The translations under genes and the position numbers were made by a program. A stretch of 64,000 nt of DNA, from positions 606 through 64,605 of the forward strand of contig JAKFCV010000003.1 of NCBI GenBank assembly GCA_036676435.1, read 5' to 3'. Shown here one piece after another: positions 4,402 through 61,856 of this stretch. How positions within the stretch are numbered: the stretch's first letter is position 1; each line of letters begins with the position of its first letter. The stretch comes from Pedobacter sp. GTDB taxonomy: Bacteria; Bacteroidota; Bacteroidia; Sphingobacteriales; Sphingobacteriaceae. The notes below the pieces were generated by a model. The model searched no databases. It worked only from the letters and a program-made list of their open reading frames with translations, and was not told the DNA's origin.

Positions 4402-4406
4402 GGTAT

Positions 4407-7393: not shown

Positions 7394-7418
7394 ATGTTAT
7401 GGATAATTCACTAACTCT

Positions 7419-29097: not shown

Positions 29098-29128
29098 TTA
29101 ACTTTGTTCAACCTTTGAAAAAATTTAA

Positions 29129-31155: not shown

Positions 31156-31176
31156 GATTAGCTTCCTCAAACGATT

Positions 31177-32649
31177 ATGTTGGAATTTATTGTTATCATC
31201 TTATACTGTGTATTCTTATTTTTTATTATACTCTTTAGTCTAGGGCAACTCGCTCTACTTCTTTCATTTTTAAAGAACAAAAAAAAAGTATTTATCTCGG
31301 TCCCTTTAAAGGTATGGCCGAAAGTTACCGTTCAGCTACCTGTTTTCAATGAACGCTATGTTATAAAAAGGCTTCTCGACAGCGTAACTTCTTTGAACTA
31401 CCCTAAAGATAAACTTGAAATCCAGGTTTTAGATGATTCCACAGATGATACGACCATCATAGCCGCTTCACGTATAGATTTTTTTCGATCTGCGGGGTTT
31501 AATATTGAACACATTTGCCGCCCAAACCGGACAGGATTTAAAGCCGGGGCCTTGCAAAATGGGATTGAAAGATCTTCGGGCGAATTTATAGCCATATTTG
31601 ATGCCGATTTCATTCCAAATCCTGATTTCTTAAGGGAAACTTTACCTCATTTCAGGAAGGAAACAGGAATGGTTCAAACTCGCTGGGGATATATTAATGC
31701 CAAACAATCCTTGTTAACACGTGCTCAGGAAATAGGCTTAAACAGTCATTTTAATATCGATCAGGGAGGGCGGAATAAGGGCGGATATTTTATCAGTTTT
31801 AACGGCACCGCAGGTATCTGGAGAAAAAGCTGCATTACTGACGCAGGCGGGTGGCAAACAGATACACTAACCGAAGATCTTGACTTGAGCTATAGGGCTC
31901 AAATGAAGGGTTGGAAGTTCATCTATTGTCCTGATATCAATTCACCATCTGAACTCCCCTATTTACTAAGTGCGGTACGATCACAACAATTCCGATGGAT
32001 AAAGGGAGGGGTTGAAACATCTAAAAAGCTATTGAGTAATTTATGGAAGTGCCGTTTATCCTTATCAGTAAAACTATTTGCCACTTTCCATCTTCTCAGT
32101 AATTATGTTTATGTCTCCATATTATTTACAGGAATATTAAGCGTACCTGTCATGCTGATTAAGAATATGGTTCCCGGATATGGTATATTTTTTGAATGGA
32201 CCGGTGCATTTTTCATTATATTTCTTATCAATTTCATGTACTGCTTTACGGCAGTCTGGGTTGATAAAAAAGAACTCCGCTCCTCACTCAAAGAAATCTT
32301 TATAGCATTCCCGATAGCCATGCTTGTTTCAATGGGCTTATCCTACCACAATACCAGGGCGGTTTTGTGTGGTTTGATGGGAACAAAATCAAACTTTGTC
32401 AGAACCCCCAAATTTAATAGTGCTAAGCTAACCGATCCGGGTTTTGAATATGCAGGCGAAAATAAAGACAAAAAAATAATCCCTGAGATCCTGCTGTTTC
32501 TCTACTTTCTGGTGGCTGTATTTACGGGATTATATTTTAAAGATTTTGCCTTCCTTTTCTACCACTTCCTCCTTATGGCAGGCTTCGGTTTAATACTCTA
32601 TCTGACATTCAATGAATCCGGAAATATTGTAAATAAAGCAAGTAAATAA
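31177..32649 (+). CDS. Membrane GT2 with the QxxRW motif (processive beta-glycan synthase-like or glycolipid synthase-like)
   Basis: One N-terminal TM helix, VQLPVFNE, LDDSTD, FDADF, TED, QQFRWIKG, then 4-5 C-terminal TM helices. Confidence 0.85.
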   Translation: MLEFIVIILYCVFLFFIILFSLGQLALLLSFLKNKKKVFISVPLKVWPKVTVQLPVFNERYVIKRLLDSVTSLNYPKDKLEIQVLDDSTDDTTIIAASRIDFFRSAGFNIEHICRPNRTGFKAGALQNGIERSSGEFIAIFDADFIPNPDFLRETLPHFRKETGMVQTRWGYINAKQSLLTRAQEIGLNSHFNIDQGGRNKGGYFISFNGTAGIWRKSCITDAGGWQTDTLTEDLDLSYRAQMKGWKFIYCPDINSPSELPYLLSAVRSQQFRWIKGGVETSKKLLSNLWKCRLSLSVKLFATFHLLSNYVYVSILFTGILSVPVMLIKNMVPGYGIFFEWTGAFFIIFLINFMYCFTAVWVDKKELRSSLKEIFIAFPIAMLVSMGLSYHNTRAVLCGLMGTKSNFVRTPKFNSAKLTDPGFEYAGENKDKKIIPEILLFLYFLVAVFTGLYFKDFAFLFYHFLLMAGFGLILYLTFNESGNIVNKASK

Positions 32650-45575: not shown

Positions 45576-47018
45576 TTATTTAATGATCGTTATTGAACCG
45601 GAAAATATCTTCTCAGCATTCTGTAAATCAATGATATAATAATACATCCCAGGCGGAAGGATCCTTCCTTTATAATGTCCATCCCAAGGCTTTTCATAAC
45701 CGCGGCTACTGAAAATCACCTGGCCATACCTGTTAAATATTTTTATTAAAGCTTCTGAATAAGATTTGAGGCCTGCGATATTCCAGAGGTCATTTAGGCC
45801 ATCCCCATTGGGAGTAAACCCATTTGGTATAACAATTTGGCTATAAACCTTAACGAACACCTCATCACTGACCGTCATATTACAGCCGTCAATTACCTGC
45901 AGTGTATAAATAATGTCTGTTAAAGGTGTTGCAATCGGGTTAAGTTTACGCGGATCATCCAAATAGGTCGACGGACTCCATAAAAAAGAAACATTATTTC
46001 CACCCGTCTGGCCATCCAGTATCACAGGCTTCCCTGCCATCGTGCTTTTATCCGGCCCGGCATTCACAACTGGCTTTGGCTTTACCGTTACAGTCATAGG
46101 GGAAGATAAAACCCTGCAGCCAACAGTAGTGATATTTATGGACTCGGCCACGGCCAGCCGGTACTTATATTCTCCAAGGGATGAACCGCCCAGGAATACT
46201 TGTGATGTGCTTGAATTTGCCCCCTGTATATCCACCCACTGATTACTGTTATCACTCATTTGCCACTGGTAGGCTGGATTGGTATATCCACCGGAAACCT
46301 TCGCAGAGAGCATAAGCGTGCTGGATTGACCTTCACAAACTAATAAGGGAGCATCACTCCCATTAATTCCGGTTTGAATGGTAGGTCCGCATGGTCGGAA
46401 AGTGATATCGTCAAGGGCCAGATCATTTCCATTTCCTCCGGGTGCATTATTGATTATTTTCAATACCACCTGAGAGGTACTTGCCGTGGTAGTGAATATC
46501 AACCCGTATTTGTTCCATTCAGGTGTACTTGTTTCGATAATATTTCCTGTTTGGTAAGAACCAAGCGGAGCGCCGTCTATAGTTTCTATGATAAATGAAA
46601 GATTTGGCTTATTACCCGCTGCAGAGGGCTTCAATACGTTTACTACATAGGCAGAAAATTCATAGGTAGTGCCCGGACAAAGCCCATTTATAGTTTGTCT
46701 GAAGAACTCGCCCGGAGAATTTGAAGCGTTAACCAGCATCATATACCCGTTTATATCCCCCGATGTATGATCTTCCGCAAGTGTATGCCAGTTATTTCCA
46801 AAGCAACCTGAAGTACTACTGACAATCGTATAGCTGCCATCTGAAGGACAGGATATAGTGGTGTAATTATAATTGGTAGACTGGAGAGGGCCGGGATGAG
46901 GTCCACTACTAAATGTAAGATTGACAACGGGTTCACCAAAACTCCCTGTGCAGGTTTGTGCATCAGAGTTTAATGGCAAAACCAATATCAAAAAAAAGCA
47001 ATAGTTTATAAACCTCAC
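45576..47018 (-). CDS. T9SS type-B C-terminal sorting domain (gliding-motility-associated CTD) cell-surface protein
   Basis: Signal peptide, a jelly-roll/CBM-like N-terminal region, an Ig-like middle region, and the C-terminal PNGFTPNGDGLNDLW...Y.G motif of the CHU_C/type-B CTD. Confidence 0.85.
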   Translation of the reverse strand: MRFINYCFFLILVLPLNSDAQTCTGSFGEPVVNLTFSSGPHPGPLQSTNYNYTTISCPSDGSYTIVSSTSGCFGNNWHTLAEDHTSGDINGYMMLVNASNSPGEFFRQTINGLCPGTTYEFSAYVVNVLKPSAAGNKPNLSFIIETIDGAPLGSYQTGNIIETSTPEWNKYGLIFTTTASTSQVVLKIINNAPGGNGNDLALDDITFRPCGPTIQTGINGSDAPLLVCEGQSSTLMLSAKVSGGYTNPAYQWQMSDNSNQWVDIQGANSSTSQVFLGGSSLGEYKYRLAVAESINITTVGCRVLSSPMTVTVKPKPVVNAGPDKSTMAGKPVILDGQTGGNNVSFLWSPSTYLDDPRKLNPIATPLTDIIYTLQVIDGCNMTVSDEVFVKVYSQIVIPNGFTPNGDGLNDLWNIAGLKSYSEALIKIFNRYGQVIFSSRGYEKPWDGHYKGRILPPGMYYYIIDLQNAEKIFSGSITIIK

Positions 47019-47592: not shown

Positions 47593-48018
47593 ATGATCAT
47601 GCATCTTAATTCTCTCCCTATGAAAAACTATTCCTTCACCCAGCCGCCTATTAAAAAAAAGAAAATTTTAATAGTGGATGATGAAGTTAGCGTACTAAAG
47701 CTACTTGAATTCATCTTAAAAGACGAGTATTCCCCGATAATAAAACAAAGCGGTATCGAGGCACTTTCTTCCCTTAATAACGGAGAAATACCTGATCTTA
47801 TTATTTCCGATATGGACATGCCATATTTCGATGGTGCTGATTTTATCAGATCACTAAAGACTAGTGGTTATTTCAGGAATATACCCGTTATTATATTATC
47901 AGGGTCAGATTCCTCTGAAAACATTAAAGCAAGAGTCCCGTATTTGATAAACGGGATTATGTCGAAGCCTTTCAATCCTGTATTCTTAAAAGAGGCTATC
48001 AGAACATTGCTGAATTAA
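47593..48018 (+). CDS. Stand-alone response-regulator receiver protein (CheY-like)
   Basis: Canonical receiver residues are present: ILIVDDE, DLIISDMDMP (phospho-acceptor Asp), VIILSGS and SKPF (Lys). There is no output domain. The start could also be the ATG at 47620. Confidence 0.85.
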   Translation: MIMHLNSLPMKNYSFTQPPIKKKKILIVDDEVSVLKLLEFILKDEYSPIIKQSGIEALSSLNNGEIPDLIISDMDMPYFDGADFIRSLKTSGYFRNIPVIILSGSDSSENIKARVPYLINGIMSKPFNPVFLKEAIRTLLN

Positions 48019-48056
48019 TAATTTACTTCTTTTTTTAACCTCTCGCCGCTATTGTT

Positions 48057-49100
48057 ATGAACGATAACATAAATATACTGTATTTTATAAATGACAACGA
48101 AGATTCATTTTTAGAAGCATTCAAAAGTCCTGAATTTAAGCTCAGGCGCTCAAATCGCCTTTCGGATCTATCAACAATTGCTGAAAATTTTTCCATTTCG
48201 GAACTAAATTCAACTATTCTTATTGAAGTTACCCCTGCCAATTTCCATAGCACAATTCATGCTGCTAAAACGATTAAAAACAATTGGTATACCCGCAATT
48301 TGTTCATTATTTTCATTTTAACAGAAAATGATCCTAAATTTTCTAGTACGGCTCTGGCCCTGGGAATAAATGATTGTTATATAACCCCTGTTCCATACGA
48401 AGATCTTAAGGAACGTATAAGGTTTTTACATACCTTTTCGATACTCAAATCTCAGATCAGCCAGCTTCCGGAGCTTCCCAAAAAGGATTATGCAATCCCT
48501 ATGGTTAAAAGGGCGATAGATATAATTATATCAGGAACCGCCCTGCTGCTGCTAAGTCCCATCTTTCTAATCATCGCCATATTAATCAAGCTGGATTCAA
48601 AAGGGAGTGTGTTTTACACAAGCAAACGGGTGGGTACCGGGTACCGGATATTCGATTTCTATAAATTCCGTACGATGAGGGCTGATGCAGATAAAGAGGT
48701 TGCCAGTCTGCTGGAAAATAACCAGTATGGCAAAGCTTCATTTTTCAAACTTCAAAACGATCCCAGGGTTACAAAGCTTGGAAGCTTTCTCAGAAATACG
48801 AGTATTGATGAACTTCCGCAGTTACTTAATGTTTTGAAGGGCGAAATGTGTCTGGTAGGCAACAGGCCTCTCCCATTATATGAAGCTGAGTTATTAACCA
48901 CAAATGAATGGTCTACCCGGTTCTTAGGACCAGCGGGACTCACAGGCCTGTGGCAAATCAGCAAACGCGGAAAAAAGGATATGTCTGAAATAGAAAGAAA
49001 ACAGCTGGACAACTACTATGCAAGCAATTTTTCCCTTTATATGGATTTCAAAATTATCCTCAAAACATTCCCGGCTCTAATTCAAAAAGAAAAAGTCTAA
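48057..49100 (+). CDS. Priming sugar-phosphate transferase (bacterial sugar transferase, WbaP/PglC-like) with an N-terminal degenerate receiver-like domain
   Basis: The C-terminal roughly 200 aa carry [16 protein letters not shown] (re-entrant helix), [25 protein letters not shown] and LVGNRP. The N-terminal roughly 130 aa have a (beta-alpha)5 receiver-like pattern but lack the Asp and Lys hallmarks. Confidence 0.9.
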
Positions 49101-49165: not shown

Positions 49166-49843
49166 ATGAAAACAAACGCACTCTTAATCCTAATGATGCT
49201 TTCCGGCCTTGGGTCCACCTTCGCACAGGAATCCATTGTATCTCAAATCAATTATACTCAGCTGGAAAAGTACATCCAGTCCGCCCAGCAAAATTACCCC
49301 AGAAAACAGATCATGGCACTGAATACTGAGCGGGCAAAGAACGACGTGCCTTCGGCGACTTTATCCTACCTGGATATCTTTAATGCATCATATTTCTACA
49401 GACCAGATGGAGCCACATCTATAAATATGGCAAATCCCTATTTAGTTAACGGTTTCCAGTTCGGAGTCAATGTCAATATTGGCAATTTCCTTCAAAAGCC
49501 TTATGAGGTTAAGAAAGCCAGAACCGAATTAAAAATCGCACAGCTTGAAGAAAAAGAGTATGAAACTGTATTGACCAATGAGGTCAAAAGCCGGTATTAC
49601 GCCTATATTCTGCAATTAAACGAGTTAAAACTTAGGACTCAGTCTGCACAGGATAACAAAACCGTATCCGACGATATGCGCTATAAGTTTGAAAAAGGAG
49701 AAATAACCCTTCAGGTTTATAATGCCTCCAGGATCAGCGCATCAGGTGCGGATTCCAGCAGAATACAGTCTGAAATAGATTTCCTGAAGGCAAAGGATGC
49801 TCTCGAAGAAATTATTGGAAAAAAATTGGAGCAGATAAATTAA
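49166..49843 (+). CDS. Half-length TolC/outer-membrane-efflux-protein-like protein (single OEP repeat)
   Basis: Signal peptide (LSGLGSTFA), then one OEP-type repeat: an N-terminal LEKYIQSAQQNYP...A motif, a short beta segment and long heptad helices, ending ...AKDALEEIIG. At 225 aa it is about half of a normal TolC protomer. Confidence 0.6.
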   Translation: MKTNALLILMMLSGLGSTFAQESIVSQINYTQLEKYIQSAQQNYPRKQIMALNTERAKNDVPSATLSYLDIFNASYFYRPDGATSINMANPYLVNGFQFGVNVNIGNFLQKPYEVKKARTELKIAQLEEKEYETVLTNEVKSRYYAYILQLNELKLRTQSAQDNKTVSDDMRYKFEKGEITLQVYNASRISASGADSSRIQSEIDFLKAKDALEEIIGKKLEQIN

Positions 49844-49849
49844 ATCAAA

Positions 49850-52015
49850 ATGGAAACTAAAAGATTTTTCAAACTTTTAAAAAAATATCTGTGGGTATTA
49901 ATATTTCTGCCTGTTTTAACTGTGGTTATTACTTACCTCCTGGTTAAAGACCTTCCTGAAGAATATAAATCAGAAGCGCAGATTTCCACGGGCCTTGCAG
50001 ATCAGTCGCAACAGATGACCTCTGCCCAGAACATGGATTATTTCAGAATAAACCAGCAATTTTCAAGCATCATAGAGATGATGAAAATGAAGAAAATGAT
50101 AGATTTACTTTCCTATCAATTGCTTCTGCATGATCTTCGCTCTCCGGAGAGCACCTTTACCAGTTACAGTGACGAGATTAATAATCTAAGCCCGGCAGAA
50201 AAAAACGAAACTATAGCGTTTTTCACAAATAAACTATATGACAAATCTCCTATTACGATAGCCGATAATGGAAAAATCAAATTTTTCGATATTCTAAGGT
50301 CGATGAAATATGATGAGAAAAGCATCCGCAAAAACCTTGAAATAACCCGCAACGATAATAGTGATTTCATTACTATCAAATACATTTCAACCAATCCTCT
50401 ACAATCGGCCTTTGCTGTTAATACCTTATCCAATGAGTTTATTAACAGTTATGAGCTTGCAGTTAATCAAAATCAAACCAAGTCCATTGTCTTACTGGAT
50501 TCCTTATTAAAAAATAAGGAGCAGCACATGAATTCTAAAAACTCTGAGCTGAAGGATTATAAAATGGAAAATGGCGTATTAAATCTTGGCACCCAATCGG
50601 ATATCCTATATGCTCAGATCTCGGCTTATGAAGAAAGAAAAGCACAGGCCATCCGGGATATACAGGCAAACCAGGGGGCGATAGCCAGCATTAACAGCAA
50701 ACTGAGCAGCAGCAGCGATAATTATGTCGGCGGAACAGTAGTGAAGGATAATAATGACATAATTAATCTTCGTAATCAGCTGCAGATTGCAAATGAAAGA
50801 TTTGTTGACAATAACTTTAACCCAGCAGATAAGAGAAAAATCGATTCTCTTCAGAATTTGCTTTCAGCACAGGTATCCCGGACTTCCGACCGCTATCTAA
50901 ATGATCCGCTGGCAGCCAAGGAAAAACTTCTTGAACAAAAAAGATCTATGGAAATGTCCCTGGACCTGGCACGGAACAGTATCCGTTCTATTGACAGGGA
51001 ATTGGCACAGTTAAAAGGGAAGTATAATTCACTGGTACCCTTTGATGCCGGAATTCAAGGCTATGAGCGTGATGCTGAAGTTGCTACAAAAGAATACCTG
51101 GAAGTTTTAGAGCGCTATAATCAGGGAAATATTGAAAAAAGTGTGGGGCTAAGATTGCAGGTTGCTCAATTAGGTTTACCTGGCTTACCTATAACTTCGA
51201 AAAGAGTTTTATATACGTCTCTGTCCGGTATTTCCAGCCTGATGTTATTTCTTGTGGCCCTGATCCTGACCTACCTTTTTGATCGTTCTATAAATAATTC
51301 AAAACAATTAGCGGCAGCTACACAAAGTCCGGTAATTGGAAGCCTTACAAGTATTAAGGAACCCGGAATGGATCTTCAAAAGATCTGGAACAGCAATGAC
51401 GATCCGGATTATACCGTTTATAAGGATCTGTTGAGATCTCTGCGTTTTGAAATAGACCACCAGCTATCTCTAAATCAAAATGTAGTGGGCATTACCAGTC
51501 TGAGATCCGGAGAAGGCAAAACCTTTCTTTCCCTTGGACTTGCCTATGCATTTGCAATGACTGATAAAAAGGTATTATTAATAAGCAGCGATTTTGAAAA
51601 GCCTTCAATAGACCAGAAGCAGCTTCCGGCTCAATTTTTTGAAAACTTCCTGGTTAAACGTGAAATTCAAAAGGAAGACTATATCACGGTTTTAAACACC
51701 AAATCTACCAATGGTTCCTTATTGGAGATTCAAAATGAAAAGAATTTAAAAGCTGGCTTCGAAGTCTTGAAAAACGAATTCGATGTCATTATCATTGATA
51801 TAAGCAGTATGGGTAACAGTAATAAAGCCAAAGAATGGCTTCTGTTTGCTGATAAAAATCTTTCTGTCTTTGAGGCGGGAAAAACCCTTACCGACGATGA
51901 TAAAGAATTTGTATCATTCATTAAAGGTCAAAAAGGCTTTATGGGTTGGGTTATTAATAAAGTTAGAATGGGTGAGATGAATCAATCGTCGTACCTGGCC
52001 AAAAAATATGCCTGA
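49850..52015 (+). CDS. Polysaccharide co-polymerase (Wzz/GumC-type) fused to a BY-kinase-like P-loop domain
   Basis: TM1 near the N-terminus, a Wzz-like and coiled-coil periplasmic region, TM2 (LSGISSLMLFLVALILTYL), then Walker A SGEGKT, A' LLISSDFEKP and B DVIIIDIS. There is no C-terminal Tyr cluster. Confidence 0.85.
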   Translation: METKRFFKLLKKYLWVLIFLPVLTVVITYLLVKDLPEEYKSEAQISTGLADQSQQMTSAQNMDYFRINQQFSSIIEMMKMKKMIDLLSYQLLLHDLRSPESTFTSYSDEINNLSPAEKNETIAFFTNKLYDKSPITIADNGKIKFFDILRSMKYDEKSIRKNLEITRNDNSDFITIKYISTNPLQSAFAVNTLSNEFINSYELAVNQNQTKSIVLLDSLLKNKEQHMNSKNSELKDYKMENGVLNLGTQSDILYAQISAYEERKAQAIRDIQANQGAIASINSKLSSSSDNYVGGTVVKDNNDIINLRNQLQIANERFVDNNFNPADKRKIDSLQNLLSAQVSRTSDRYLNDPLAAKEKLLEQKRSMEMSLDLARNSIRSIDRELAQLKGKYNSLVPFDAGIQGYERDAEVATKEYLEVLERYNQGNIEKSVGLRLQVAQLGLPGLPITSKRVLYTSLSGISSLMLFLVALILTYLFDRSINNSKQLAAATQSPVIGSLTSIKEPGMDLQKIWNSNDDPDYTVYKDLLRSLRFEIDHQLSLNQNVVGITSLRSGEGKTFLSLGLAYAFAMTDKKVLLISSDFEKPSIDQKQLPAQFFENFLVKREIQKEDYITVLNTKSTNGSLLEIQNEKNLKAGFEVLKNEFDVIIIDISSMGNSNKAKEWLLFADKNLSVFEAGKTLTDDDKEFVSFIKGQKGFMGWVINKVRMGEMNQSSYLAKKYA

Positions 52016-53549
52016 GAAGCATGAAACCATTAGAAACTTATTTTCTTATTTGCTCAAAGGATTTTTTGAGCTACTATCAACCCTCTTTAAAACTCCACCT
52101 ATGAGGCAATACCTGCTTTCATTGCTTGAATTGTTCCAGAAAGGGCTTATGCTCCTTTTGGGACTTATTACGGCTCTTGTTATCGGGTTCTTTACTGCTC
52201 AGTTCGGTTCAGTAATCCCGGTAACAATAATCGTAGCATCAATAATTACAGCCTTACTGGTAGGAATATTTAAAAATCCGGAATATGGATTTATAGCTAC
52301 AATATCCTACTGTTTTCTCTTTTTCATTTTGGTAAGGGAAGCAGGTGGTTTCCCTTTTGGAATTGGAATAGAAATACTTCTGGCATTAACCTGGATAGCT
52401 ACCTGCATTCAGTACAAACGATATGACTGGCATCTGGTTAAAAATGACCTTGTTTATTTAATTTTTGCCTGGTTTATAATAAGTGTTCTGGAAATCCTAA
52501 ATCCTGCAGGAGCAAGCGTCATGGGATGGCTTCAGGAAATCAGAACCTCGGCGGTTTATCCGTTATTGATTATTCCGCTTGCATTTCTCTTCTTCACAAA
52601 AAACAGGAACCTTAATTTTTTTCTTATCCTTATTATGGCGCTTTCTGTAATAGCTACCTTAAACGGAATAAGGCAGGTTTATATAGGACTGTCGCCGGGA
52701 GAGCAAAAATTTCTCGATGAAGGCGGGGCAAGTACCCATTTATTATGGGGCAAGCTCAGGGTCTTTTCCTTTTTCAGTAACGCAAGTCAATATGGAGTAT
52801 CGCAAGCACATATAGGATTAATAGCATTTGTTCTTGCTCTCGGCCCTTTTAAGTGGTGGAAAAAAATAACGCTTCTGGCTGTATCAGGAATTCTGCTTTA
52901 CGGCATGCTGATATCAGGTACCAGAGGTGCTCTTTTTGCCTTGATAATCGGTGGAATTGTAGCTATTGTGCTGAGTAAAAATTACAAGATCCTGATCATA
53001 GGCAGTCTGTTGGTTTTATCCGGAGTAAGTGTGCTTAAATTCACTACTTATGGAAATGGACATTATGAGATCTACAGGCTTAGAACGGCTCTGGATCCCC
53101 AGGATGCATCATTAAATACCCGCTTCCTTAATCAGGAGATCCTAAAGGATTATTTAAAAACCCGTCCCTTCGGAGGTGGTTTAGGAGTAACCGGATTTTG
53201 GGGAGCCAAATACAATTCAGATAAATTTCTTTCTACCATTCCCCCTGATAGTTATTGGGTGAAGGTATGGGTGATGTATGGAATAGCAGGCCTGACCATC
53301 TGGTTCAGTATAATGATGTATATCCTGGGAAAATGCTGCGGAATAATATGGAAAATTCAGGATAAGAAACTGAAGTTTAAATTGATTGCACTTTGTTCAG
53401 GTGCGGCCGGAATTTTCTTTGCCAGTTATGGCAATGAAATCATTAACGATATGCCATCAGCATTGATAGTGAGCGTTTCCTGGGTATTTATCTATTTAGG
53501 GCCAAAATTAGACCGTCAAATTTTAAAACCCGAGCCAAATGCAGAATAG
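52008..53549 (+). CDS. O-antigen ligase/polymerase (Wzy-like) family membrane protein
   Basis: About 12 TM helices with a large loop carrying SGTRGALFAL (Wzy_C-like). Its start overlaps the upstream stop by 8 nt. Confidence 0.8.
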   Translation: MPEKHETIRNLFSYLLKGFFELLSTLFKTPPMRQYLLSLLELFQKGLMLLLGLITALVIGFFTAQFGSVIPVTIIVASIITALLVGIFKNPEYGFIATISYCFLFFILVREAGGFPFGIGIEILLALTWIATCIQYKRYDWHLVKNDLVYLIFAWFIISVLEILNPAGASVMGWLQEIRTSAVYPLLIIPLAFLFFTKNRNLNFFLILIMALSVIATLNGIRQVYIGLSPGEQKFLDEGGASTHLLWGKLRVFSFFSNASQYGVSQAHIGLIAFVLALGPFKWWKKITLLAVSGILLYGMLISGTRGALFALIIGGIVAIVLSKNYKILIIGSLLVLSGVSVLKFTTYGNGHYEIYRLRTALDPQDASLNTRFLNQEILKDYLKTRPFGGGLGVTGFWGAKYNSDKFLSTIPPDSYWVKVWVMYGIAGLTIWFSIMMYILGKCCGIIWKIQDKKLKFKLIALCSGAAGIFFASYGNEIINDMPSALIVSVSWVFIYLGPKLDRQILKPEPNAE

Positions 53550-54450
53550 TCCGCTTGTTTCCATTATCTCAATTAATTACGATCAGCCTCAGGTTACTTT
53601 CGGAATGCTGGAATCGCTAAGAAATTTATCTTACAAGAATATTGAGATCATAATAGTGGACAATGCATCGCCAAATCATGATCCTGAACAAATTAAACAA
53701 CGGTATCCAGAGATCAAACTTATAAAATCCGGTATAAATCTGGGTTTTGCCGGGGGTAATAACCTGGGAATTAAAGAGGCAAAGGGTAAATATCTTTTCT
53801 TTCTAAATAATGACACCGAAGTAACCAGCGATTGTTTAGAGCCTTTAGTGAACCTGTTTGAATCAAACAGCACAGCGGGAATTGCATCGCCCAAGATTAA
53901 ATTTTTCGATTCAGATAATATAATTCAATATGCCGGTTCAACGGAGATTAACCCCTGGACAGGGCGAAATCGTGGTATTGGAAGCATGGAGAAAGATACC
54001 GGACAATTCAACTTATCGACTAAAACAGATTTAGCCCATGGAGCGGCAATGATGGTTCCAAGGGCTGTTATTGATAAAGCGGGTTTAATGCCAGAGATAT
54101 ATTTTTTATACTATGAAGAACTGGATTGGTGTGAGATGATAAAAAGAGAAGGCTATTCCTGTCATTATGTTGGGGAGGCCTCTGTCTATCACAAAGAATC
54201 CATGTCGGTAGGAAAGGCTTCGCTCCTAAAAACCTATTACATAAACAGAAACCGGCTCCTGTTTATCCGCAGAAATTTTTCCGGATTTCAAAAGTGGTCC
54301 AGTTACCTCTTATTCCTCGCACTTGCTATTCCTAAAAGGTCTGCTGGGCATGCGATAAAAGGTGAATGGAAACATTGTATGGCATTATGGAGAGGGGTAT
54401 TCTGGAATTTGAAGTCAGCCATCCAACCACATATCCACAGCAATGTTTAA
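53539..54450 (+). CDS. GT2 glycosyltransferase (rhamnosyltransferase-like)
   Basis: VSIISINYD, IIVDNAS, GFAGGNN, FLNNDT and YYEELDWC motifs. Overlaps the upstream gene by 11 nt. Confidence 0.9.
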   Translation: MQNSPLVSIISINYDQPQVTFGMLESLRNLSYKNIEIIIVDNASPNHDPEQIKQRYPEIKLIKSGINLGFAGGNNLGIKEAKGKYLFFLNNDTEVTSDCLEPLVNLFESNSTAGIASPKIKFFDSDNIIQYAGSTEINPWTGRNRGIGSMEKDTGQFNLSTKTDLAHGAAMMVPRAVIDKAGLMPEIYFLYYEELDWCEMIKREGYSCHYVGEASVYHKESMSVGKASLLKTYYINRNRLLFIRRNFSGFQKWSSYLLFLALAIPKRSAGHAIKGEWKHCMALWRGVFWNLKSAIQPHIHSNV

Positions 54451-54606
54451 AGATTTAATGAATCCAAACTATATCTATCATGCCATTTGAATTCTTTTTA
54501 CTACCGGGTATACTCTTTCTCATTCTAGGTTTTCTGAATGGAAAGAAATATTACAGGAAACAAAATCCCTGATTATTGTTAAGATAATTTAAAGCGATTT
54601 GAAATT

Positions 54607-55248
54607 ATGACAGTTCAATTGAAGCAGATGTCCATAACAGCTAAGATAAAATCTAATCCGGTCCTCAAAAAGATGGCGCTTAGATTACTCATTCCCAGGA
54701 ATGAGTACCGGCCAAGAACCTGGGTGAAATGGTTTCTGAATCCATTTAAGCATAAGCATGGGCAGGGTTCTGTAATTAGAAGCCGCACAAGGACCGACCT
54801 GTTTCCCTACAATAATTTCACCCTCGGTAAGGACTCTGTCATTGAAGATTTTACTACCATAAACAATGCAGTGGGAGATGTGATCATCGGCGATAAAACG
54901 ATTATTGGTATTGGTTCGGTTATTATCGGACCTGTTGCCATCGGAAATAATGTTCTGATTGCCCAGAACATTGTCATGTCCGGATTAAACCACGGATATG
55001 AAGATGTTAATATCCCACCTTCGGAACATGAGGTTACATGTAAGCCTATCGTAATTTCAGATAATGTATGGATTGGAGCGAACAGCGTAATTACTGCAGG
55101 TGTCACCCTGGGTAAACACTGCGTAATCGGAGCAGGAAGCATTGTGACCAAAAGCATTCCCGATTATTGTGTGGCAGTGGGAAACCCGGCTAAAATTATT
55201 AAAAAGTATAATTCCGTCAGTAAAAGCTGGGAAAGCATTAAGCAATAA
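54607..55248 (+). CDS. Left-handed beta-helix (hexapeptide-repeat) O-acyltransferase
   Basis: Repeated [LIV]-G-x-x-x-x hexads (IGDKTIIGIGSVIIGPVAIGNNVLIAQN...VWIGANSVITAGVTLGKHCVIGAGSIV). Confidence 0.85.
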   Translation: MTVQLKQMSITAKIKSNPVLKKMALRLLIPRNEYRPRTWVKWFLNPFKHKHGQGSVIRSRTRTDLFPYNNFTLGKDSVIEDFTTINNAVGDVIIGDKTIIGIGSVIIGPVAIGNNVLIAQNIVMSGLNHGYEDVNIPPSEHEVTCKPIVISDNVWIGANSVITAGVTLGKHCVIGAGSIVTKSIPDYCVAVGNPAKIIKKYNSVSKSWESIKQ

Positions 55249-55260
55249 ATAACAATCAGA

Positions 55261-56490
55261 ATGATCCGAAATATTGAAGGCAGAGATATCGTAATAATAG
55301 GGCAACAGCCCTGGGATACCGATATAGGTAGCAATTGTAAGGACATCGCATTGGAAATGAGCAAGAGCAACCGAATATTGTACGTTAATTCTCCTCTGGA
55401 CAGGGCCACCAGGATCAGAAATAAAAATGATCAAAAAATAAAGAAACGAATTTCCATTGTAAATGGAAAGGAAACCGGATTGATCAGAATTAATGATAAC
55501 CTCTGGAACCTCTATCCTGATTGCATGGTGGAATCGATCAACTGGATCAATATCAGATATGTTTTTGATGCCATTAATAAGCAAAACAACAGAAAATTCG
55601 CTAATTCAATAAAGAAAGCACTGGATAAATTAAGCTTTAAGGACTATATATTATTCAACGATAATGAAATGTTCAAAGGCTTTTATTTAAAAGACTTTCT
55701 AAAACCCGAGCTCAGTGTTTACTATTCCAGAGATTATATGCTGGCAGTAGATTACTGGAAAAAGCACGGCGAAAGGCTGGAGCCCTTACTCATATCAAAG
55801 AACGATATATGTATGGCCAATTCTACATATTTGGCTGATTATTGCAAGCAATATAATTCCAACAGCTTTTACATCGGACAGGGATGCGATCTCGAAATGT
55901 TCAATAACATCACCGATATACCAGGGGTATTTAAAGATATTAAGGGTCCGATAATCGGATATGTAGGCGCACTCCAATCAATCCGCCTGGATATTGACCT
56001 GATAGCGGGGATAGCTCTGGCACGTCCTGACTGGAATATTGCACTCGTTGGCCCTGAAGATGAGAATTTCACATCCAGCATCTTGCACCAGCTCCCTAAT
56101 GTGATTTTTACAGGCTTAAAACCAATGAGCGAACTTCCCGCCTGTATCAAATCGTTTGATGTATGCATCAATCCGCAGTTAATCAATGAGGTGACCATAG
56201 GAAATTACCCCAGAAAAATAGATGAATATCTGGCGGTTGGTAAGCCGGTGGTTGCAACCCGGACCCGTGCAATGGATATTTTTCAGGACCACGTCTACCT
56301 GGCTGGCGACCTCGGGGAATATTTGAACTGTATTGAAGCGGCCCTGGGGGAGGAAAACCCATTACTTCAAACCAAAAGAAAAGATTTTGCACAATTGCAC
56401 ACCTGGAAAAATTGCGTTCAGGAGATCTATTCCATTCTAAACGCTGCAGAAAGCGGTAACTCTCAAAAACCAATCAATGAATTTAATTAA
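55261..56490 (+). CDS. GT-B fold glycosyltransferase (GT4/TuaH-like)
   Basis: C-terminal nucleotide-sugar-binding region GYVGAL...PRKIDEYLAVGKPVVAT (EX7E-like). Confidence 0.8.
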   Translation: MIRNIEGRDIVIIGQQPWDTDIGSNCKDIALEMSKSNRILYVNSPLDRATRIRNKNDQKIKKRISIVNGKETGLIRINDNLWNLYPDCMVESINWINIRYVFDAINKQNNRKFANSIKKALDKLSFKDYILFNDNEMFKGFYLKDFLKPELSVYYSRDYMLAVDYWKKHGERLEPLLISKNDICMANSTYLADYCKQYNSNSFYIGQGCDLEMFNNITDIPGVFKDIKGPIIGYVGALQSIRLDIDLIAGIALARPDWNIALVGPEDENFTSSILHQLPNVIFTGLKPMSELPACIKSFDVCINPQLINEVTIGNYPRKIDEYLAVGKPVVATRTRAMDIFQDHVYLAGDLGEYLNCIEAALGEENPLLQTKRKDFAQLHTWKNCVQEIYSILNAAESGNSQKPINEFN

Positions 56491-57661
56491 TACAATTTGG
56501 ATAATCGTACAGATATTGATCGGATATCATCTGATATTGCCTCTAATCCTGTATATTTTTTATTTGACTAAAAAAAGAAAAGAAAAATTTCTTGCAGGAA
56601 CCTATGCAGCCGATTACGCCATAATAGTGACTGCCTATGAACAAACTGATTTATTGCCATCTGTTATAAGTTCTATTTTAAAACTCAATTACAGCAATTA
56701 CCTGGTTTATGTGGTCGCGGATAAATGCGATATTTCACAGTTAAAATTCAATGATCCCAGGGTCATTTTACTGAGACCGGAGGAAACACTTTCAAACAAT
56801 GTGAAATCCCACTTTTATGCAATTGACCGATTTAAACGATCGCACGAAAGGCTTACAATAATCGATAGTGATAATTTGGTGGACCCTGAATATTTAAACC
56901 ACTTGAATGATTTGTTTGATCAGGGTTTCAGTGCGGTTCAGGGAGTGAGAGAGGCTAAAAACCTGAACACCCACTATGCCTGCCTGGATGCCGCACGGGA
57001 TATTTACTATCGGCTTATAGATAATAAATTACTCTTCGATACAGGTTCCTCAGCTACTCTGTCTGGTTCAGGCATGGCCTTCACAACAAGGCTTTACAAA
57101 GAATGTCTTGAGCACTCGAAAATTGAAGGTGCAGGTTTTGACAAGGTACTGCAATTTGAAATACTTAAACGGAATCACAGGATAGCCTTTTCTGAACATG
57201 CTGTTGTCTATGATGAAAAAACGTCACAATCCAGCCAACTTGTAAAGCAGAGGGCAAGATGGATTAATACCTGGTTTAAATATTTCAACCTTGGAATAAA
57301 AATGACAGGCTACGGAGTTAAGGAATTGAATTGGAACAAATTTATGTTCGGGGTATTGCTGATGAGACCACCCCTATTCATTCTGGTTATACTGTCATTT
57401 GTCTGCCTGCTGATTGATATGTTCCTTTTCCCTTATATGGCAATCATCTGGCTTATTTCACTATTTATATTTATAGCCATGTTCTTTGTTGCCTTTTCAC
57501 ATTTTAAAGCTCATAAGCAGATTTACAAATCGCTTATAAATGCTCCAAAATTTGTATACCACCAAATTTCCGCATTAATAAAGGCAAAGAATGCTAATCA
57601 ATTATCTGTTGCCACAAAACATTATGTAGATAGTGATCCTGTATTACAGCAAAACGATTAA
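56477..57661 (+). CDS. Membrane-anchored GT2 glycosyltransferase
   Basis: N-terminal TM helix, VTAYEQ, VVADKCD, IIDSDN, QRARW (QxxRW-like), then C-terminal TM helices. Overlaps the upstream gene by 14 nt. Confidence 0.8.
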   Translation: MNLINTIWIIVQILIGYHLILPLILYIFYLTKKRKEKFLAGTYAADYAIIVTAYEQTDLLPSVISSILKLNYSNYLVYVVADKCDISQLKFNDPRVILLRPEETLSNNVKSHFYAIDRFKRSHERLTIIDSDNLVDPEYLNHLNDLFDQGFSAVQGVREAKNLNTHYACLDAARDIYYRLIDNKLLFDTGSSATLSGSGMAFTTRLYKECLEHSKIEGAGFDKVLQFEILKRNHRIAFSEHAVVYDEKTSQSSQLVKQRARWINTWFKYFNLGIKMTGYGVKELNWNKFMFGVLLMRPPLFILVILSFVCLLIDMFLFPYMAIIWLISLFIFIAMFFVAFSHFKAHKQIYKSLINAPKFVYHQISALIKAKNANQLSVATKHYVDSDPVLQQND

Positions 57662-57733
57662 GACGCCTGAGAATAACCCATACTTATCAAAGAGCGACCC
57701 ATATAAATTTACAATTCCATTAAAACAACAAGC

Positions 57734-58474
57734 ATGATATTAAAAAATTCGATTAAACTCCTTCTTCAGAAAGTACTGGGTTTTAAAACCTATTTATTTG
57801 TTTTTTCCCTGCTCACTATACAACGTTTGAAACATGAAGAAGAATTCCTCCTGTTCAATAAAATGATCGAGGATGGCGGCATAATACTGGATATTGGAGC
57901 TAATATCGGAACCATGACAACCCTCATTGCAAGCAAACTTAGAAATTCAAAAATATACGCATTCGAACCAATTCCTGAAAATATAAAAACCATCCGCAGG
58001 GTTATTCAGCACTACAAACTTGATAACGTCGTGATCTACGAAGCTGCACTAGGTGAAGAAAAGGGTGAATTAAGAATGGTAATGCCGGTAATCAATAATG
58101 TGAAAATGCAGGGCTTAAGTCATGTGCTGTTAGAAAGTGAAATCCCGGGGGATAACGATTCTGGAAACATCTATTCTGTCCCTGTGCATAAACTGGATGA
58201 TATTGCTGAATTTACTTCGGGCAAAAGAATAACTGCCATAAAAATTGATGTTGAAAACTTCGAGTACCAGGTTCTCAAGGGTGGTGAAGAGGTGTTAAAA
58301 AAGCACAGACCCATCATTTATTGTGAATTGTGGGATAATGAAAAGAAATATATCACAATCGACTATTTAAACACCCTTGGTTATAAAGCTAAAATATATG
58401 AGGACAGGCAGCTGGTAGATTATAAAAAGCAAAAAGCCATAAACTTTTTCTTTTTGCCTGAAAATGCGGCCTGA
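57734..58474 (+). CDS. FkbM family SAM-dependent methyltransferase
   Basis: ILDIGANIGTMT SAM-binding motif, AFEP and IKIDVENFEYQVLKG, all typical of FkbM. Confidence 0.85.
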   Translation: MILKNSIKLLLQKVLGFKTYLFVFSLLTIQRLKHEEEFLLFNKMIEDGGIILDIGANIGTMTTLIASKLRNSKIYAFEPIPENIKTIRRVIQHYKLDNVVIYEAALGEEKGELRMVMPVINNVKMQGLSHVLLESEIPGDNDSGNIYSVPVHKLDDIAEFTSGKRITAIKIDVENFEYQVLKGGEEVLKKHRPIIYCELWDNEKKYITIDYLNTLGYKAKIYEDRQLVDYKKQKAINFFFLPENAA

Positions 58475-58650
58475 ACAATGCCTAAATCTCAGTAATTGTA
58501 TTTATGAAAAACTTAAGCAGCATTAGCCTGTTTAAGTATCTAAACCATTAAAAATGTTTCATACCAGCATATCCCATCCCGCCTTAACTACTCCTGAAAG
58601 AGCATTGTTCAATTATCGTATAGTTTCTGTCCGGGGCTGATCCTGATTTT

Positions 58651-59547
58651 ATGAGAATTGCAAATCTTATAATGGCTCATAAGAACCCCGCTCAAATAGA
58701 GAGACTGATTGTAAAAATGAGATATAATCCCTTTGATTTTTATATTCATCTGGATAAGAAAACAGATATCGAAGATTATAAACATCTGTCTGAATTTGAA
58801 AATGTATTCTTTATCGTTAACCGTACCGAATGTAACTGGGGGGGATACAGCTTTGTAACTGCAATCGTTAATTCCTTAACAGAGGTTTTAAATTCAGGGA
58901 GGAGTTATGGGTTTATTAATCTTATGAGTGGTCAGGACTATCCTATAAAGCCGGTAAACGAGATCTATGAATATTTATCTGAACATAAGGGCAAGTCATT
59001 TTTAGCATACGAGCATGTCGATCATACCTGGTGGGAAGAGGCTGTAACCCGATTTAAATTTTATCACCTGACAGATTTCAAATTAATAGGCAGGTATCTG
59101 CTACAAAAAATCATAAATAAATTAATGCCCAGCCGAAAGTTTCCTCTGGATCTGACACTTTACGGAAGTGCGAATTCATCCTGGTGGACAATAAGTACTG
59201 AAGCGGCTGATTACCTTGTAAGATATATACGGGATAATACAAAACTCAGGAAATTCATGCGTTTTACCTGGGGTGCTGATGAATTCCTTATTACCACCAT
59301 TATAATGAATTCCCCTTTCAGAGATAAAGTTATTAATGATAATCTGAGATATATAGACTGGTCGCAGGGAGGCGCTCATCCCAAAACTTTTTCAAAGGAA
59401 GATTTTCAAACCCTCGTTAAATCCGATAAGTGCTTTGCCAGAAAATTCGATATAGGCGCGGATAAAGAAATTCTTGACCTCATTGATCAGAGTGAGATAA
59501 ATTTCAGAAACAATCAAAAAACATTTAACAATCAGCCCCTACCATGA
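58651..59547 (+). CDS. GT14 (core-2/I-branching enzyme-type) beta-1,6-N-acetylglucosaminyltransferase-like protein
   Basis: IANLIMAHKNPAQIERLI, FYIHLDKK, CNWGGYSFV, LMSGQDYP, WWTIS and ADEFLITTI are characteristic of the Branch family. Confidence 0.8.
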   Translation: MRIANLIMAHKNPAQIERLIVKMRYNPFDFYIHLDKKTDIEDYKHLSEFENVFFIVNRTECNWGGYSFVTAIVNSLTEVLNSGRSYGFINLMSGQDYPIKPVNEIYEYLSEHKGKSFLAYEHVDHTWWEEAVTRFKFYHLTDFKLIGRYLLQKIINKLMPSRKFPLDLTLYGSANSSWWTISTEAADYLVRYIRDNTKLRKFMRFTWGADEFLITTIIMNSPFRDKVINDNLRYIDWSQGGAHPKTFSKEDFQTLVKSDKCFARKFDIGADKEILDLIDQSEINFRNNQKTFNNQPLP

Positions 59548-59615
59548 ACGTATCGGGAGTGTTTGCAGAATGACTGCAGATAGTTCTCTCTTTACCATTG
59601 CTTATATTACTGTCT

Positions 59616-60974
59616 ATGAAGATCCTGTTGAATTCGATTTTGACAAAACTTAATAATAAATACATATTATCGCTTGCCGGCAATGGAATTATGTCGGGGG
59701 TGGGTATGATCACAGCAATTATCCTTTTAAGAGCTTTGAGCATTAATGATATGGGTTTATGGATCTTGTTTCTCACCAGTTATCTATTACTTGATACAAT
59801 CAGATCCGGTTTTTTAACCGTAGCTTTTATAAAATTCTATTCTGGTGCGGAAAAAACCCGGGCTAATGAAATTGTGGGATCAACATGGCTTATCGCGATT
59901 TTGATTACCCTGACTTTCATCGTCCTGAATATCCCCGCCTATTTTATTTCACTGTATTTTCAAAATGAAGCTATTTCGCTGTTTCTGAAATGGTTTGGAA
60001 TAACCTATATCGTTTCACTTCCTTTTTTTGTTGCCACATGTATTTTGCAAGCCAGGCAAAGATTTGATCAGCTCCTGGTGCTGAGAATTTTCAATCAGGG
60101 TTCATTTGTTATTTTACTCTTACTCTTTATCTCTGCAGGAAATATTAATATACAAACGGTCATATATTCCTACATCCTTTCCAATATCCTGTCGAGCCTG
60201 ATCGGTATCATCAAAGGCTGGACACTATTCGAACAAATAAAATATCAATCAAAAAAAACGCTAAAAGAATTATACAATTTCGGAAAATTCAGTGTCGGGA
60301 CCAGCTTAAGTGCAAGTCTGTTCGGAACAGCCGATAGATTTATAATCAATTTTATGCTCGGACCGGCTGCTCTTGCTATTTTTGATACAGGTGCCAAATT
60401 AATCCAGGTCGTTGAAATCCCCCTGCGAAGCTTTATAGCCACGGCCATGCCCAGCCTGTCTTCATATTATAACAGAGACCTAAAACTGGAGGTAGTAGAA
60501 GTAATGAAAAAATATATTGGCATGATAACGATCGTGCTGGTGCCTTTAACCCTTATCACCTTCCTGTTTGCAGACTATATTATATTAGTGCTTGGGGGAG
60601 AAAAGTATATGAATAGCCTGGCTCCGGATGTTCTTAGGATCTTTATGCTTATAGCACTTCTTTATCCTGTTGACAGATTTATGGCCCTGACCCTTGATGT
60701 CATCCACCAGCCTAAAATCAATTTTTTCAAAGTTATCCTTATGCTTATAGTTACCGTTATTACAGACATTGCCGGAATTTACCTGACCGGAAATGTTTTT
60801 GGGGTCGCTGTGGCATCCGTCTTTCCAGTCCTGGCAGGGATCGGCATAAGTTTTTATGCCTTGAATTTTTATTATGCAAAATTCAATTTCCTGGATATAT
60901 ACATACGGGGCTTTAAAGAGCTCAAAGTACTGTTCGCCAATTCATTTAATCTGAATCCAAAACCTCAGGGATAA
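59616..60974 (+). CDS. Wzx-type oligosaccharide flippase (MOP superfamily)
   Basis: About 12-14 TM helices with MOP/polysaccharide-biosynthesis-protein topology. The track TTG start at 59598 was trimmed to the ATG at 59616 (MKILLNSIL). Confidence 0.8.
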   Translation: MKILLNSILTKLNNKYILSLAGNGIMSGVGMITAIILLRALSINDMGLWILFLTSYLLLDTIRSGFLTVAFIKFYSGAEKTRANEIVGSTWLIAILITLTFIVLNIPAYFISLYFQNEAISLFLKWFGITYIVSLPFFVATCILQARQRFDQLLVLRIFNQGSFVILLLLFISAGNINIQTVIYSYILSNILSSLIGIIKGWTLFEQIKYQSKKTLKELYNFGKFSVGTSLSASLFGTADRFIINFMLGPAALAIFDTGAKLIQVVEIPLRSFIATAMPSLSSYYNRDLKLEVVEVMKKYIGMITIVLVPLTLITFLFADYIILVLGGEKYMNSLAPDVLRIFMLIALLYPVDRFMALTLDVIHQPKINFFKVILMLIVTVITDIAGIYLTGNVFGVAVASVFPVLAGIGISFYALNFYYAKFNFLDIYIRGFKELKVLFANSFNLNPKPQG

Positions 60975-61046
60975 ATTTAGCAGCTGCGCCTGTAAAACAT
61001 TTAATTTTTAGACTTGTTCATCCAGTAAATCTGACAGTATTATAAG

Positions 61047-61856
61047 ATGCCTTTAAGACCCTTAGCCCTTCCGAATTTTGTAAAGAATGAACAGCATGAT
61101 GCAGGCTGGTTCCTGGAAAATGCCGAACTCATTCATAGTAATATGAAGAAAATCCAATCAGACTCTCCTGACATTACCGTGATCATACCTGCCTATAATG
61201 AAGAAGATACCATTCTGAGGACTCTCTCCTCTTTGTCCAAAAGCAGGACTACCCAAAAAATCGAAATTTTGGTTGTTGATAATAATTCCACAGATAGAAC
61301 TGCCGAGTTGATTAAAATGAGTGGTGCAAGGTATTTATTTGAGCCGGAGCAGGGAGTAAAACATGCCAGGACAGCAGGCTTAATGGCAGCCAGAGGTAAA
61401 TTCATTTTAAATGCGGATGCGGATTCTATCTATTCTCCTTACTGGATAGATCTAATGACCCTCCCTTTAAGAAATGATAAGGTTGCGTGTACCTATGGAA
61501 GGTTTGCATTTTTTCCGGAAAATGATACCTCACGTTCTTATTACTTTTTTTATGAAAGCTTCGGTGATCTTTATAAAAGAACTATCCAGAAATTAAAAGA
61601 TGAGGCTATGTATGTCTATGGATGCAGTTCCGGATACAGAAAAGCACAGGGAGTTCTTGTAGATGGATATGAGCATCCTCCGGGTTCAAATGAAGACGGC
61701 TATCTGGGTCTTAAACTAAGGGAAAAGTTTGGACGACTTAAACGGATCACCGATAATAAGGCGCTGGTCTGGACCTCAGACAGACGATTAAACGAGGAAG
61801 GCGGAGTTTCTTCAGCCTTTGCCAACCGGATCAGAAAGATATTCTTTAAACATTAA
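61047..61856 (+). CDS. GT2 glycosyltransferase (soluble)
   Basis: ITVIIPAYNEE, LVVDNNSTDRT and NADADS motifs. Confidence 0.85.
   Translation: MPLRPLALPNFVKNEQHDAGWFLENAELIHSNMKKIQSDSPDITVIIPAYNEEDTILRTLSSLSKSRTTQKIEILVVDNNSTDRTAELIKMSGARYLFEPEQGVKHARTAGLMAARGKFILNADADSIYSPYWIDLMTLPLRNDKVACTYGRFAFFPENDTSRSYYFFYESFGDLYKRTIQKLKDEAMYVYGCSSGYRKAQGVLVDGYEHPPGSNEDGYLGLKLREKFGRLKRITDNKALVWTSDRRLNEEGGVSSAFANRIRKIFFKH

Follow-up and report, generated by a model that had tools for sequence, protein, structure and literature searches.

In a 64,000-nucleotide (nt) stretch of Pedobacter sp. DNA (assembly GCA_036676435.1, contig JAKFCV010000003.1, positions 606 to 64,605 of the forward strand; hereafter the window), two adjacent genes at 47593-49100 encode a stand-alone response-regulator receiver and a phosphoglycosyl transferase (PGT) whose N-terminal domain has the predicted fold of a receiver but has lost the corresponding phospho-chemistry. 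The features of this gene pair are given below in amino acids (aa) and window coordinates, with the basis of each call in brackets.

47593..48018, plus strand: stand-alone response-regulator receiver, 141 aa as the longest open reading frame (ORF) (Pfam Response_reg, single domain)
47809-47811, plus strand: codon of the acceptor Asp, D73 (motif position)
47965-47967, plus strand: codon of the Lys, K125 (motif position)
48019..48056, plus strand: intergenic spacer of 38 nt (ORF coordinates)
48057..49100, plus strand: 347-aa monotopic PGT (Pfam Bac_transf)
48057..48461, plus strand: pseudo-receiver domain, aa 1-135 of the PGT (profile, AlphaFold2 (AF2), Foldseek and hhalign)
48225-48227, plus strand: Glu57, invariant, at the acceptor position (alignment)
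48384-48386, plus strand: Thr110, in place of the Lys (alignment)
48462..48500, plus strand: low-confidence linker, aa 136-148, from receiver α5 to the membrane-associated helix (predicted local distance difference test score (pLDDT) 55-69)
48501..49100, plus strand: PGT catalytic domain, aa 149-347 plus stop (Pfam Bac_transf and invariant columns)
48555-48560, plus strand: Ser167-Pro168 helix break (alignment)
48807-48812, plus strand: Asp251-Glu252 dyad, invariant, in SIDELPQ (alignment)
β/α elements of the pseudo-receiver, in aa of the PGT: β1 5-10, α1 15-21, β2 27-31, α2 37-43, β3 53-58, α3 63-74, β4 83-88, α4 93-101, β5 106-109, α5 114-134

As judged from its sequence, the 141-aa protein is a canonical, phosphorylation-competent single-domain receiver. 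The Pfam scan returned a Response_reg (PF00072) match of 65.9 bits (cutoff 30.2) over residues 25-137 and no second domain, while the NCBIfam matches were all sub-threshold and generic, the top one being to a DivK-like single-domain family. The motifs VDDE (D29, D30), IISDMD (D73), ILSGS (S103) and SKPF (K125) are all present. In an alignment of orthologues, D30, D73, K125, P126, N128 and P129 were invariant and the S/T position was mostly kept, giving the family its KPFNP signature. The start of the gene is ambiguous (47593-47620); the longest ORF gives 141 aa and initiation at M10 (47620) would give ~132 aa, close to the 131 aa of the Pedobacter orthologues. Pfam searches covering every window ORF of 213 aa or more and three shorter ORFs turned up no protein with HisKA, HATPase or Hpt, and the receiver is therefore considered an orphan. 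No plus-strand terminator-like site was found in the 38-nt spacer between the receiver and PGT genes, making co-transcription of the two likely. In the 574-nt intergenic region upstream of the receiver there was no Rfam element, and a scan with a sigma-70 promoter model, which is unsuited to Bacteroidota, scored below chance. A preliminary description of the locus had attributed all receiver hallmarks and no output domain to the first protein, given the coordinates of both ORFs with a 38-nt gap and noted the lack of a nearby cognate histidine kinase; the motifs and the lone Pfam domain, the ORF listing and the scan of window ORFs bear these statements out.

The second gene encodes, by profile and motifs, a small monotopic PGT with predicted catalytic activity. 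The Bac_transf (PF02397) match covers residues 151-342 with 201 bits. Across an alignment of homologues, D251-E252, P168 and K151 were invariant and S167 and R152 were at least 90% conserved, so that the dyad and the Ser-Pro break, which we take to be hallmarks of PglC-type monotopic PGTs, are both in place in what had been described as a fused, complete bacterial-sugar-transferase domain. A further motif, PLPLYEAE, is specific to the family. We found no sign of a large monotopic PGT (monoPGT) of the WbaP/EpsZ type: the 147-aa N-extension has no hydrophobic segment and no CoA_binding_3 (PF13727) match, the TIGR03025/WbaP-type models gave C-terminal matches under their equivalog cutoffs, and the WbaP, WcaJ and EpsZ models matched over their C-terminal ~200 positions only, again below cutoffs.

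The N-domain of the PGT had been proposed to be a degenerate receiver, and the profile, structural and alignment evidence agreed on this point. The strings INILYF, LIEV, FILTEN and NDCYITPVP were all found in the 347-aa protein. Residues 1-150 had no Pfam match above threshold, and a faint NCBIfam match was to PleD positions 189-269, corresponding to the degenerate second receiver of PleD. Full-length homologues of 347-361 aa occur throughout the Sphingobacteriaceae, with 75-92% identity to the window PGT in Daejeonella and ~55-63% in Pedobacter, Pelobium and Pseudopedobacter, so that the window probably derives from a Daejeonella-like organism; within this family F22, E57, A99, D106, C107, Y108, R120, L124 and L130 of the N-domain are invariant. 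A profile built from these domains and compared with the PDB matched receivers exclusively (top match PleD, E=7e-5), aligning E57 with PleD's acceptor D53 and the stretch DCY.xP with PleD's D(F/Y)L.KP. AF2 modeling of the N-domain alignment gave exactly five β-α units, (βα)5, with a pLDDT of 89.7 and a predicted TM-score (pTM) of 0.82, and thus not the non-receiver fold that the preliminary description had named as the outcome that would speak against it. In a Foldseek search of the PDB, the top 50 matches were all receivers (probability 1.0, query TM-score (TMq) 0.60-0.75), including WspR, XynC, PleD, DesR, PhoB, PorX and the atypical TadZ/CpaE receivers. Finally, hhalign of the N-domain against the family of partner free receivers gave 89.7% probability (E=2e-6), with T110 opposite K125 and P111 opposite P126. 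We conclude that the N-domain is a receiver fold, on the strength of the model and the profile alignments. It is classed as a pseudo-receiver because there is no DD pocket after β1, the acceptor Asp is replaced by Glu (E57) and the Lys by Thr (T110), as had been noted earlier for the last two positions; only T89 is retained.

The pseudo-receiver is much less conserved than the enzyme to which it is fused, with an effective identity across the family of ~17% compared to 61% for the catalytic domain. The acceptor position is occupied by E, K, N, S or occasionally D, and a DD pocket is present in none of the members. Within the Sphingobacteriaceae, conservation is highest in β3, β4, β5 and α5, such that mainly the β-core, β5 and α5 are retained.

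The free receiver was found with the PGT well beyond the window. A single N-domain query against related loci retrieved four Daejeonella loci only; in Pedobacter puniceum, a JGI contig and an ENA Bacteroidota contig, a 131-aa Response_reg gene lies 0-4 nt upstream of the PGT in all three cases. A metagenome scan with the full-length PGT alignment added 80 more distant PGT loci (numbered L below). For the survey of fusion and adjacency that had been suggested at the outset, ORFs were called, PGTs were detected with a local hidden Markov model (HMM) of the catalytic domain and classed by their N-extension, and receivers were detected with an HMM built iteratively from the loci. The 67 loci with a full-length PGT ORF and at least 450 nt of upstream DNA were counted as follows.

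PGT with a soluble 120-200-aa N-extension: 22 loci, stand-alone receiver directly upstream in 21
Large WbaP-like PGT: 35 loci, stand-alone receiver directly upstream in 0
Small PGT: 10 loci, stand-alone receiver directly upstream in 0

The difference between 21/22 and 0/45 corresponds to a Fisher p of 1.7e-16 for loci that are phylogenetically non-independent. In the 21 positive loci the receiver is 113-147 aa long, on the same strand and separated from the PGT by -11 to +95 nt, and the receiver stop codon frequently overlaps the PGT start codon, an arrangement suggestive of translational coupling. The free receivers make up a close-knit family (mean pairwise identity ~46%) in which D30, PDLIISD and KPFNP are invariant or nearly so, and the acceptor Asp together with the Lys-Pro is kept in 24 of 25 aligned sequences. 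The receiver-PGT order was found in Pedobacter, other Bacteroidota and gut Bacteroides, and the genes that follow differ by locus: an OEP-like gene, a polysaccharide co-polymerase (PCP) gene and wzy in many, and in Bacteroides just a family 2 glycosyltransferase (GT2) gene and an acetyltransferase gene. In L008, a 6-kb insertion related to type IX secretion (the T9SS), with genes for an OmpA/TPR protein, PorP/SprF and a CHU_C cadherin-like T9SS cargo, separates the PGT from the OEP-like and PCP genes. Given this variation downstream, it is the PGT and not the export machinery that the receiver tracks, and the constant part of the locus is the receiver-PGT pair. Pairwise-identity correlations between domains (Spearman 0.56-0.68) were not used as evidence of co-evolution since shared phylogeny explains all of them. 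Many of the distant PGTs also carry a 40-70-aa insertion in the catalytic domain, between KFRSM and NDPR (L012, L013, L014-L020, L023, L027, L028, L059 and L088), that is acidic in most and Cys-rich in L012 and L013; the window PGT has none.

When the alignment of distant members was used as the query, a 385-388-aa "sugar transferase" from human-gut Bacteroides (WP_143866882.1, WP_032844829.1) also proved to belong to the family, with hosts listed as B. ovatus, B. congonensis, B. faecium, B. zhangwenhongii and multispecies entries; a single one of these sequences occurs on at least 1000 contigs. Here the module heads a compact operon of receiver, PGT, GT2 and acetyltransferase genes. In L089, L090 and L092, all from gut Bacteroides, this operon consists of four genes, with the hexapeptide acetyltransferase gene last and no Wzx, Wzy or PCP gene nearby, and in two contexts it adjoins the trp operon and an asparaginase gene. 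The N-domain of the Bacteroides type has diverged strongly. Its profile matched mostly receivers in the PDB (top match 3luf, E=3e-4), and the domain again has an invariant Glu: E52, in ILFEQ, lies no more than one residue from the acceptor position. With hhalign, the alignment to the Sphingobacteriaceae N-domain was weak (E=0.0015, probability 17%), placing E52 opposite E57, and a search of a representative library with the Sphingobacteriaceae N-domain profile returned 68 clusters and no bridge to the Bacteroides-type domain. The two N-domains may be kin, as the weak hhalign alignment and the shared architecture would suggest.

The two window proteins have a peculiar α3-β4 motif in common, KTSGYFRN (LKTSGYFRNIPVII) in the receiver and KNNWYTRN in the pseudo-receiver. 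This motif, together with the 89.7% hhalign probability, suggests that receiver and pseudo-receiver are paralogs. The HMM of free receivers built from the loci matched the N-domain of the L010 PGT at 4e-27, and in L008 (an ENA Bacteroidota contig, 5737-7997) three tandem canonical receiver genes of 131-145 aa, closely similar by eye, lie upstream of one pseudo-receiver PGT. Collectively, the motif, the hhalign alignment, the L010 match and the L008 triplication suggest that the fused domain arose by duplication of the neighboring receiver.

In the window the pair is followed by genes at 49166-61856 (plus strand) that, by their predicted products, are a complete Wzx/Wzy-type polysaccharide cluster. 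The Pfam and NCBIfam scans assigned them as listed.

49166-49843, plus strand: OEP-like protein, 225 aa
49850-52015, plus strand: Wzz/P-loop PCP, 721 aa
52008-53549, plus strand: Wzy-like protein, 513 aa
53539-54450, plus strand: GT2
54607-55248, plus strand: hexapeptide acyltransferase
55261-56490, plus strand: family 1 glycosyltransferase (GT1)
56477-57661, plus strand: GT2
57734-58474, plus strand: FkbM methyltransferase
58651-59547, plus strand: Branch-type glycosyltransferase
59598-60974, plus strand: Wzx flippase
61047-61856, plus strand: GT2

The 225-aa OEP/TolC-family protein is about half the usual size and is encoded next to the PCP in Sphingobacteriaceae loci and in L013 as well; it may be the outer-membrane export component, as no Wza/Poly_export protein was found among the scanned cluster ORFs. 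The 721-aa PCP has a Wzz domain followed by a C-terminal P-loop (GEGKT at residue 554), as in bacterial tyrosine kinases (BY-kinases). Its C-terminal tail (…MGEMNQSSYLAKKYA) has two Tyr only and no obvious Tyr cluster, and the protein may be a degenerate kinase. Directly upstream of the receiver, a divergent gene at 45576-47018 (minus strand) encodes a protein of 480 aa that combines a CBM_4_9-like region and PKD-like repeats with a CHU_C domain for type IX secretion sorting, and T9SS-linked genes thus adjoin the module in the window as they do in L008. A second glycan-related group at 26164-32649 (plus strand) has genes for a PMT_2 (ArnT-like) glycosyltransferase, a pyridine-nucleotide disulfide oxidoreductase, a 4Fe-4S protein and a GT2, as well as a 490-aa GT2 with weak similarity to cellulose synthase.

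On balance, we consider it somewhat probable that the receiver and the PGT form a conserved regulatory module that sets whether the Wzx/Wzy pathway starts, by means of a post-translational switch between the two proteins. The predicted PGT would transfer a sugar-1-phosphate onto undecaprenyl phosphate, and D73 of the free receiver would be phosphorylated by a kinase encoded elsewhere or by a small phosphodonor. We infer that, once phosphorylated, the receiver makes direct contact with the PGT and changes how active it is or how it oligomerizes, with either activation or inhibition as the outcome, so that glycan initiation would be gated post-translationally, by analogy with the gating of Myxococcus xanthus EpsZ by phosphorylated EpsW (described below). 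The docking site would most likely be the pseudo-receiver, probably through the receiver dimerization face α4-β5-α5. As the fused domain looks like a diverged paralog, the heterodimer contact could derive from an ancestral contact within a homodimer; the likely paralogy, together with the β5 and α5 that are retained, makes an α4-β5-α5 heterodimer a reasonable proposal. A post-translational switch is the best-supported interpretation because the adjacency is conserved and PGT-specific, stop and start codons frequently overlap and two precedents are known from experiment. D-to-E substitutions mimic phospho-Asp in some response regulators, and by analogy the fixed Glu of the pseudo-receiver may do the same. 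A more specific proposal, which is tentative and which we regard as rather less probable, is that throughout the Bacteroidota a Glu-held, "active-like" pseudo-receiver pairs via α4-β5-α5 only with the phosphorylated free receiver, switching the small PGT without a change in transcription. If true, this would be phosphorylation-dependent receiver-to-receiver control of an enzyme, distinct from the dimer-stabilizing model for EpsW and EpsZ.

Several observations weigh against a phosphorylation-dependent switch. The adjacency statistics rest on the phylogenetically non-independent loci noted above, and L011 has no free receiver beside its N-extended PGT. The L024 free receiver (3983-4411) still has K-P-F but neither the DD pocket (CIERNS) nor the acceptor Asp (FIIISVE); by these motifs both partners in L024 are pseudo-receivers, so that phosphorylation cannot be needed in every lineage. 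The fast evolution of the pseudo-receiver (~17% identity) would be unexpected for a tightly constrained interface, though α5 and β5 are retained. The AF2 model of the full-length PGT had a pLDDT of 69.7 and a pTM of 0.44, with the catalytic half poorly modeled and the packing of the domains undefined. The only natural receiver-pseudo-receiver-PGT fusion found, P0273 (510 aa, L091:2304-3836), was rejected as evolutionary evidence: it is a singleton in which an 8-nt deletion (ATTGACTA) deletes the receiver stop codon of the common unfused B. ovatus-type allele. P0273 is a strain variant or an assembly error, and the remaining copies of this allele are all unfused.

Some of these points would fit the alternative that the free receiver is merely co-transcribed with the PGT and acts on another target, which might be some other enzyme, the PCP/P-loop protein, a component of secretion or motility, or a transcription factor partner. 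On that view, the pseudo-receiver would have no function or only a structural one, serving in dimerization, solubility or membrane positioning in place of the transmembrane (TM) bundle and domain of unknown function (DUF) of large PGTs. The quick divergence of the pseudo-receiver and the L011 locus are in line with this, as are the T9SS-related genes that neighbor the module in both the window and L008 and the reports that small monoPGTs are functional monomers and that receiver domains are common scaffolds (PMC12802240). We nevertheless regard this explanation as unlikely: the receiver is specific to N-extended PGTs, its adjacency persists as all other neighbors change, including in the four-gene Bacteroides operon without a PCP or OEP, and the frequent overlap of stop and start codons points to translational coupling. 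Such coupling would also suit a free receiver that belongs to the PGT complex as a constitutive, stoichiometric component, namely as a paralogous heterodimer partner on which folding, stability or oligomerization depends; phosphorylation would then be dispensable or modulatory, and there would be no switch. This second alternative could account for the L024 receiver, which has lost DD and Asp yet keeps its position and K-P-F, and for the invariant Glu of the fused domain, which suggests a fixed "active-like" conformation. It is less probable still, as 24 of the 25 free receivers have the acceptor Asp and the Lys-Pro and the catalytic set is essentially intact, implying selection for phosphorylation, and as the EpsW precedent requires phosphorylation. 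That the N-domain is unrelated to receivers, being a remnant of the WbaP-type Rossmann-like DUF (CoA_binding_3) or another flavodoxin-like fold with convergent similarity, can for practical purposes be dismissed, since, although there is no Pfam Response_reg match and flavodoxin-like folds are common, the PDB profile matches are receivers only and in correct motif register, hhalign and the L010 match tie the domain to receivers, and a WbaP-DUF origin was rejected on the lack of both a PF13727 match and a WbaP DUF among the top 50 Foldseek matches.

The closest known system is that of M. xanthus, where phosphorylated EpsW, a single-domain receiver, contacts and activates the large monoPGT EpsZ post-translationally, in a complex modeled as 2:2 (Schwabe et al., mBio 2025, PMC12802240). 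As in the window, a phosphorylatable single-domain response regulator is encoded with a polysaccharide cluster and its kinase gene lies elsewhere; the regulator acts post-translationally, as is proposed for the window pair, on the monotopic PGT that initiates a Wzx/Wzy pathway. EpsZ, however, is a large monoPGT with a four-TM bundle and a Rossmann-like DUF but no receiver-like domain, whereas the window PGT is a small core with a pseudo-receiver, and in this Bacteroidota system the docking site and the role of dimerization may differ. The window proteins were also not orthologs of the pair by the NCBIfam models, scoring 33.4 bits against a cutoff of 200 for EpsW (NF041866) and 163 against 800 for EpsZ (NF041877). 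The second precedent is Anabaena All4160, in which STAS forms the N-terminal domain ahead of Bac_transf and phosphorylation on Ser acts as the switch (Harada et al., Mol Microbiol 2026, PMC13555669). All4160 with HenR/Alr3423, as well as Synechocystis XssP (PMC13555669), likewise have a ~140-aa signaling domain N-terminal to Bac_transf and post-translational control by a partner protein, and partner genes can adjoin (all2284/all2285). In All4160, however, the fused STAS domain is itself Ser-phosphorylated by a partner-switching kinase, whereas here the phosphorylatable element is a separate protein and the fused receiver fold is non-phosphorylatable.

Fusions of receivers to small monoPGTs have been noted before, in the PGT sequence-similarity-network survey of O'Toole, Imperiali and Allen (PNAS 2021), as summarized in PMC12802240, which cites it for the statement that small monoPGTs can carry receiver domains; the authors of PMC12802240 speculated that receiver domains regulate PGTs elsewhere. 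The passage citing O'Toole et al. (2021) mentions neither an obligatory adjacent free receiver nor an invariant Glu. An annotation-based survey may have missed the window family because the fused domain has no Pfam PF00072 annotation.

Other pseudo-receivers, such as the D2 adaptor of PleD, the N-domain of TadZ/CpaE and the plant pseudo-response regulators (PRRs), resemble the fused domain in having a (βα)5 fold that has lost its phospho-chemistry and serves as a module for protein-protein interaction. The D1 and D2 domains of PleD pack through their receiver faces, and in plant PRRs Glu replaces Asp at the acceptor site. No glycan-priming enzyme is known to be attached to any of them, nor do they have a free paralogous receiver as a dedicated partner. 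Among other controlled priming PGTs, Sinorhizobium ExoY is subject to a small inhibitory protein, ExoX. Staphylococcus aureus CapM is controlled through phosphorylation by a Tyr kinase in the CapM/CapB system, as cited in PMC12802240. In both cases a partner protein controls the priming PGT post-translationally, but by other chemistry and with other partner folds, and without receiver domains.

In light of these systems, the statement in the preliminary description that no characterized example of the arrangement was known is outdated, with EpsW/EpsZ (PMC12802240) and All4160 (PMC13555669) now described and receiver-PGT fusions cataloged in the survey cited in PMC12802240. We found no description in the literature searched of a free receiver and a pseudo-receiver-fused small PGT as a conserved Bacteroidota gene pair. 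The pair is thus a real, conserved and uncharacterized variant of a newly recognized form of control, rather than categorically new.

Limited supplies of undecaprenyl phosphate and nucleotide sugars are shared among pathways, and how the choice between glycan pathways is made at the protein level is only now emerging, from two papers of 2025-2026. The module would extend receiver-based control from the large PGTs of myxobacteria to small PGTs in another phylum, and it offers a putative docking domain, the pseudo-receiver, in a simple two-gene system that lends itself naturally to testing how pseudo-receivers are put to use. It occurs in genetically tractable gut and soil Bacteroidota, among them the gut Bacteroides, whose surface polysaccharides shape interactions with the host and with phage.

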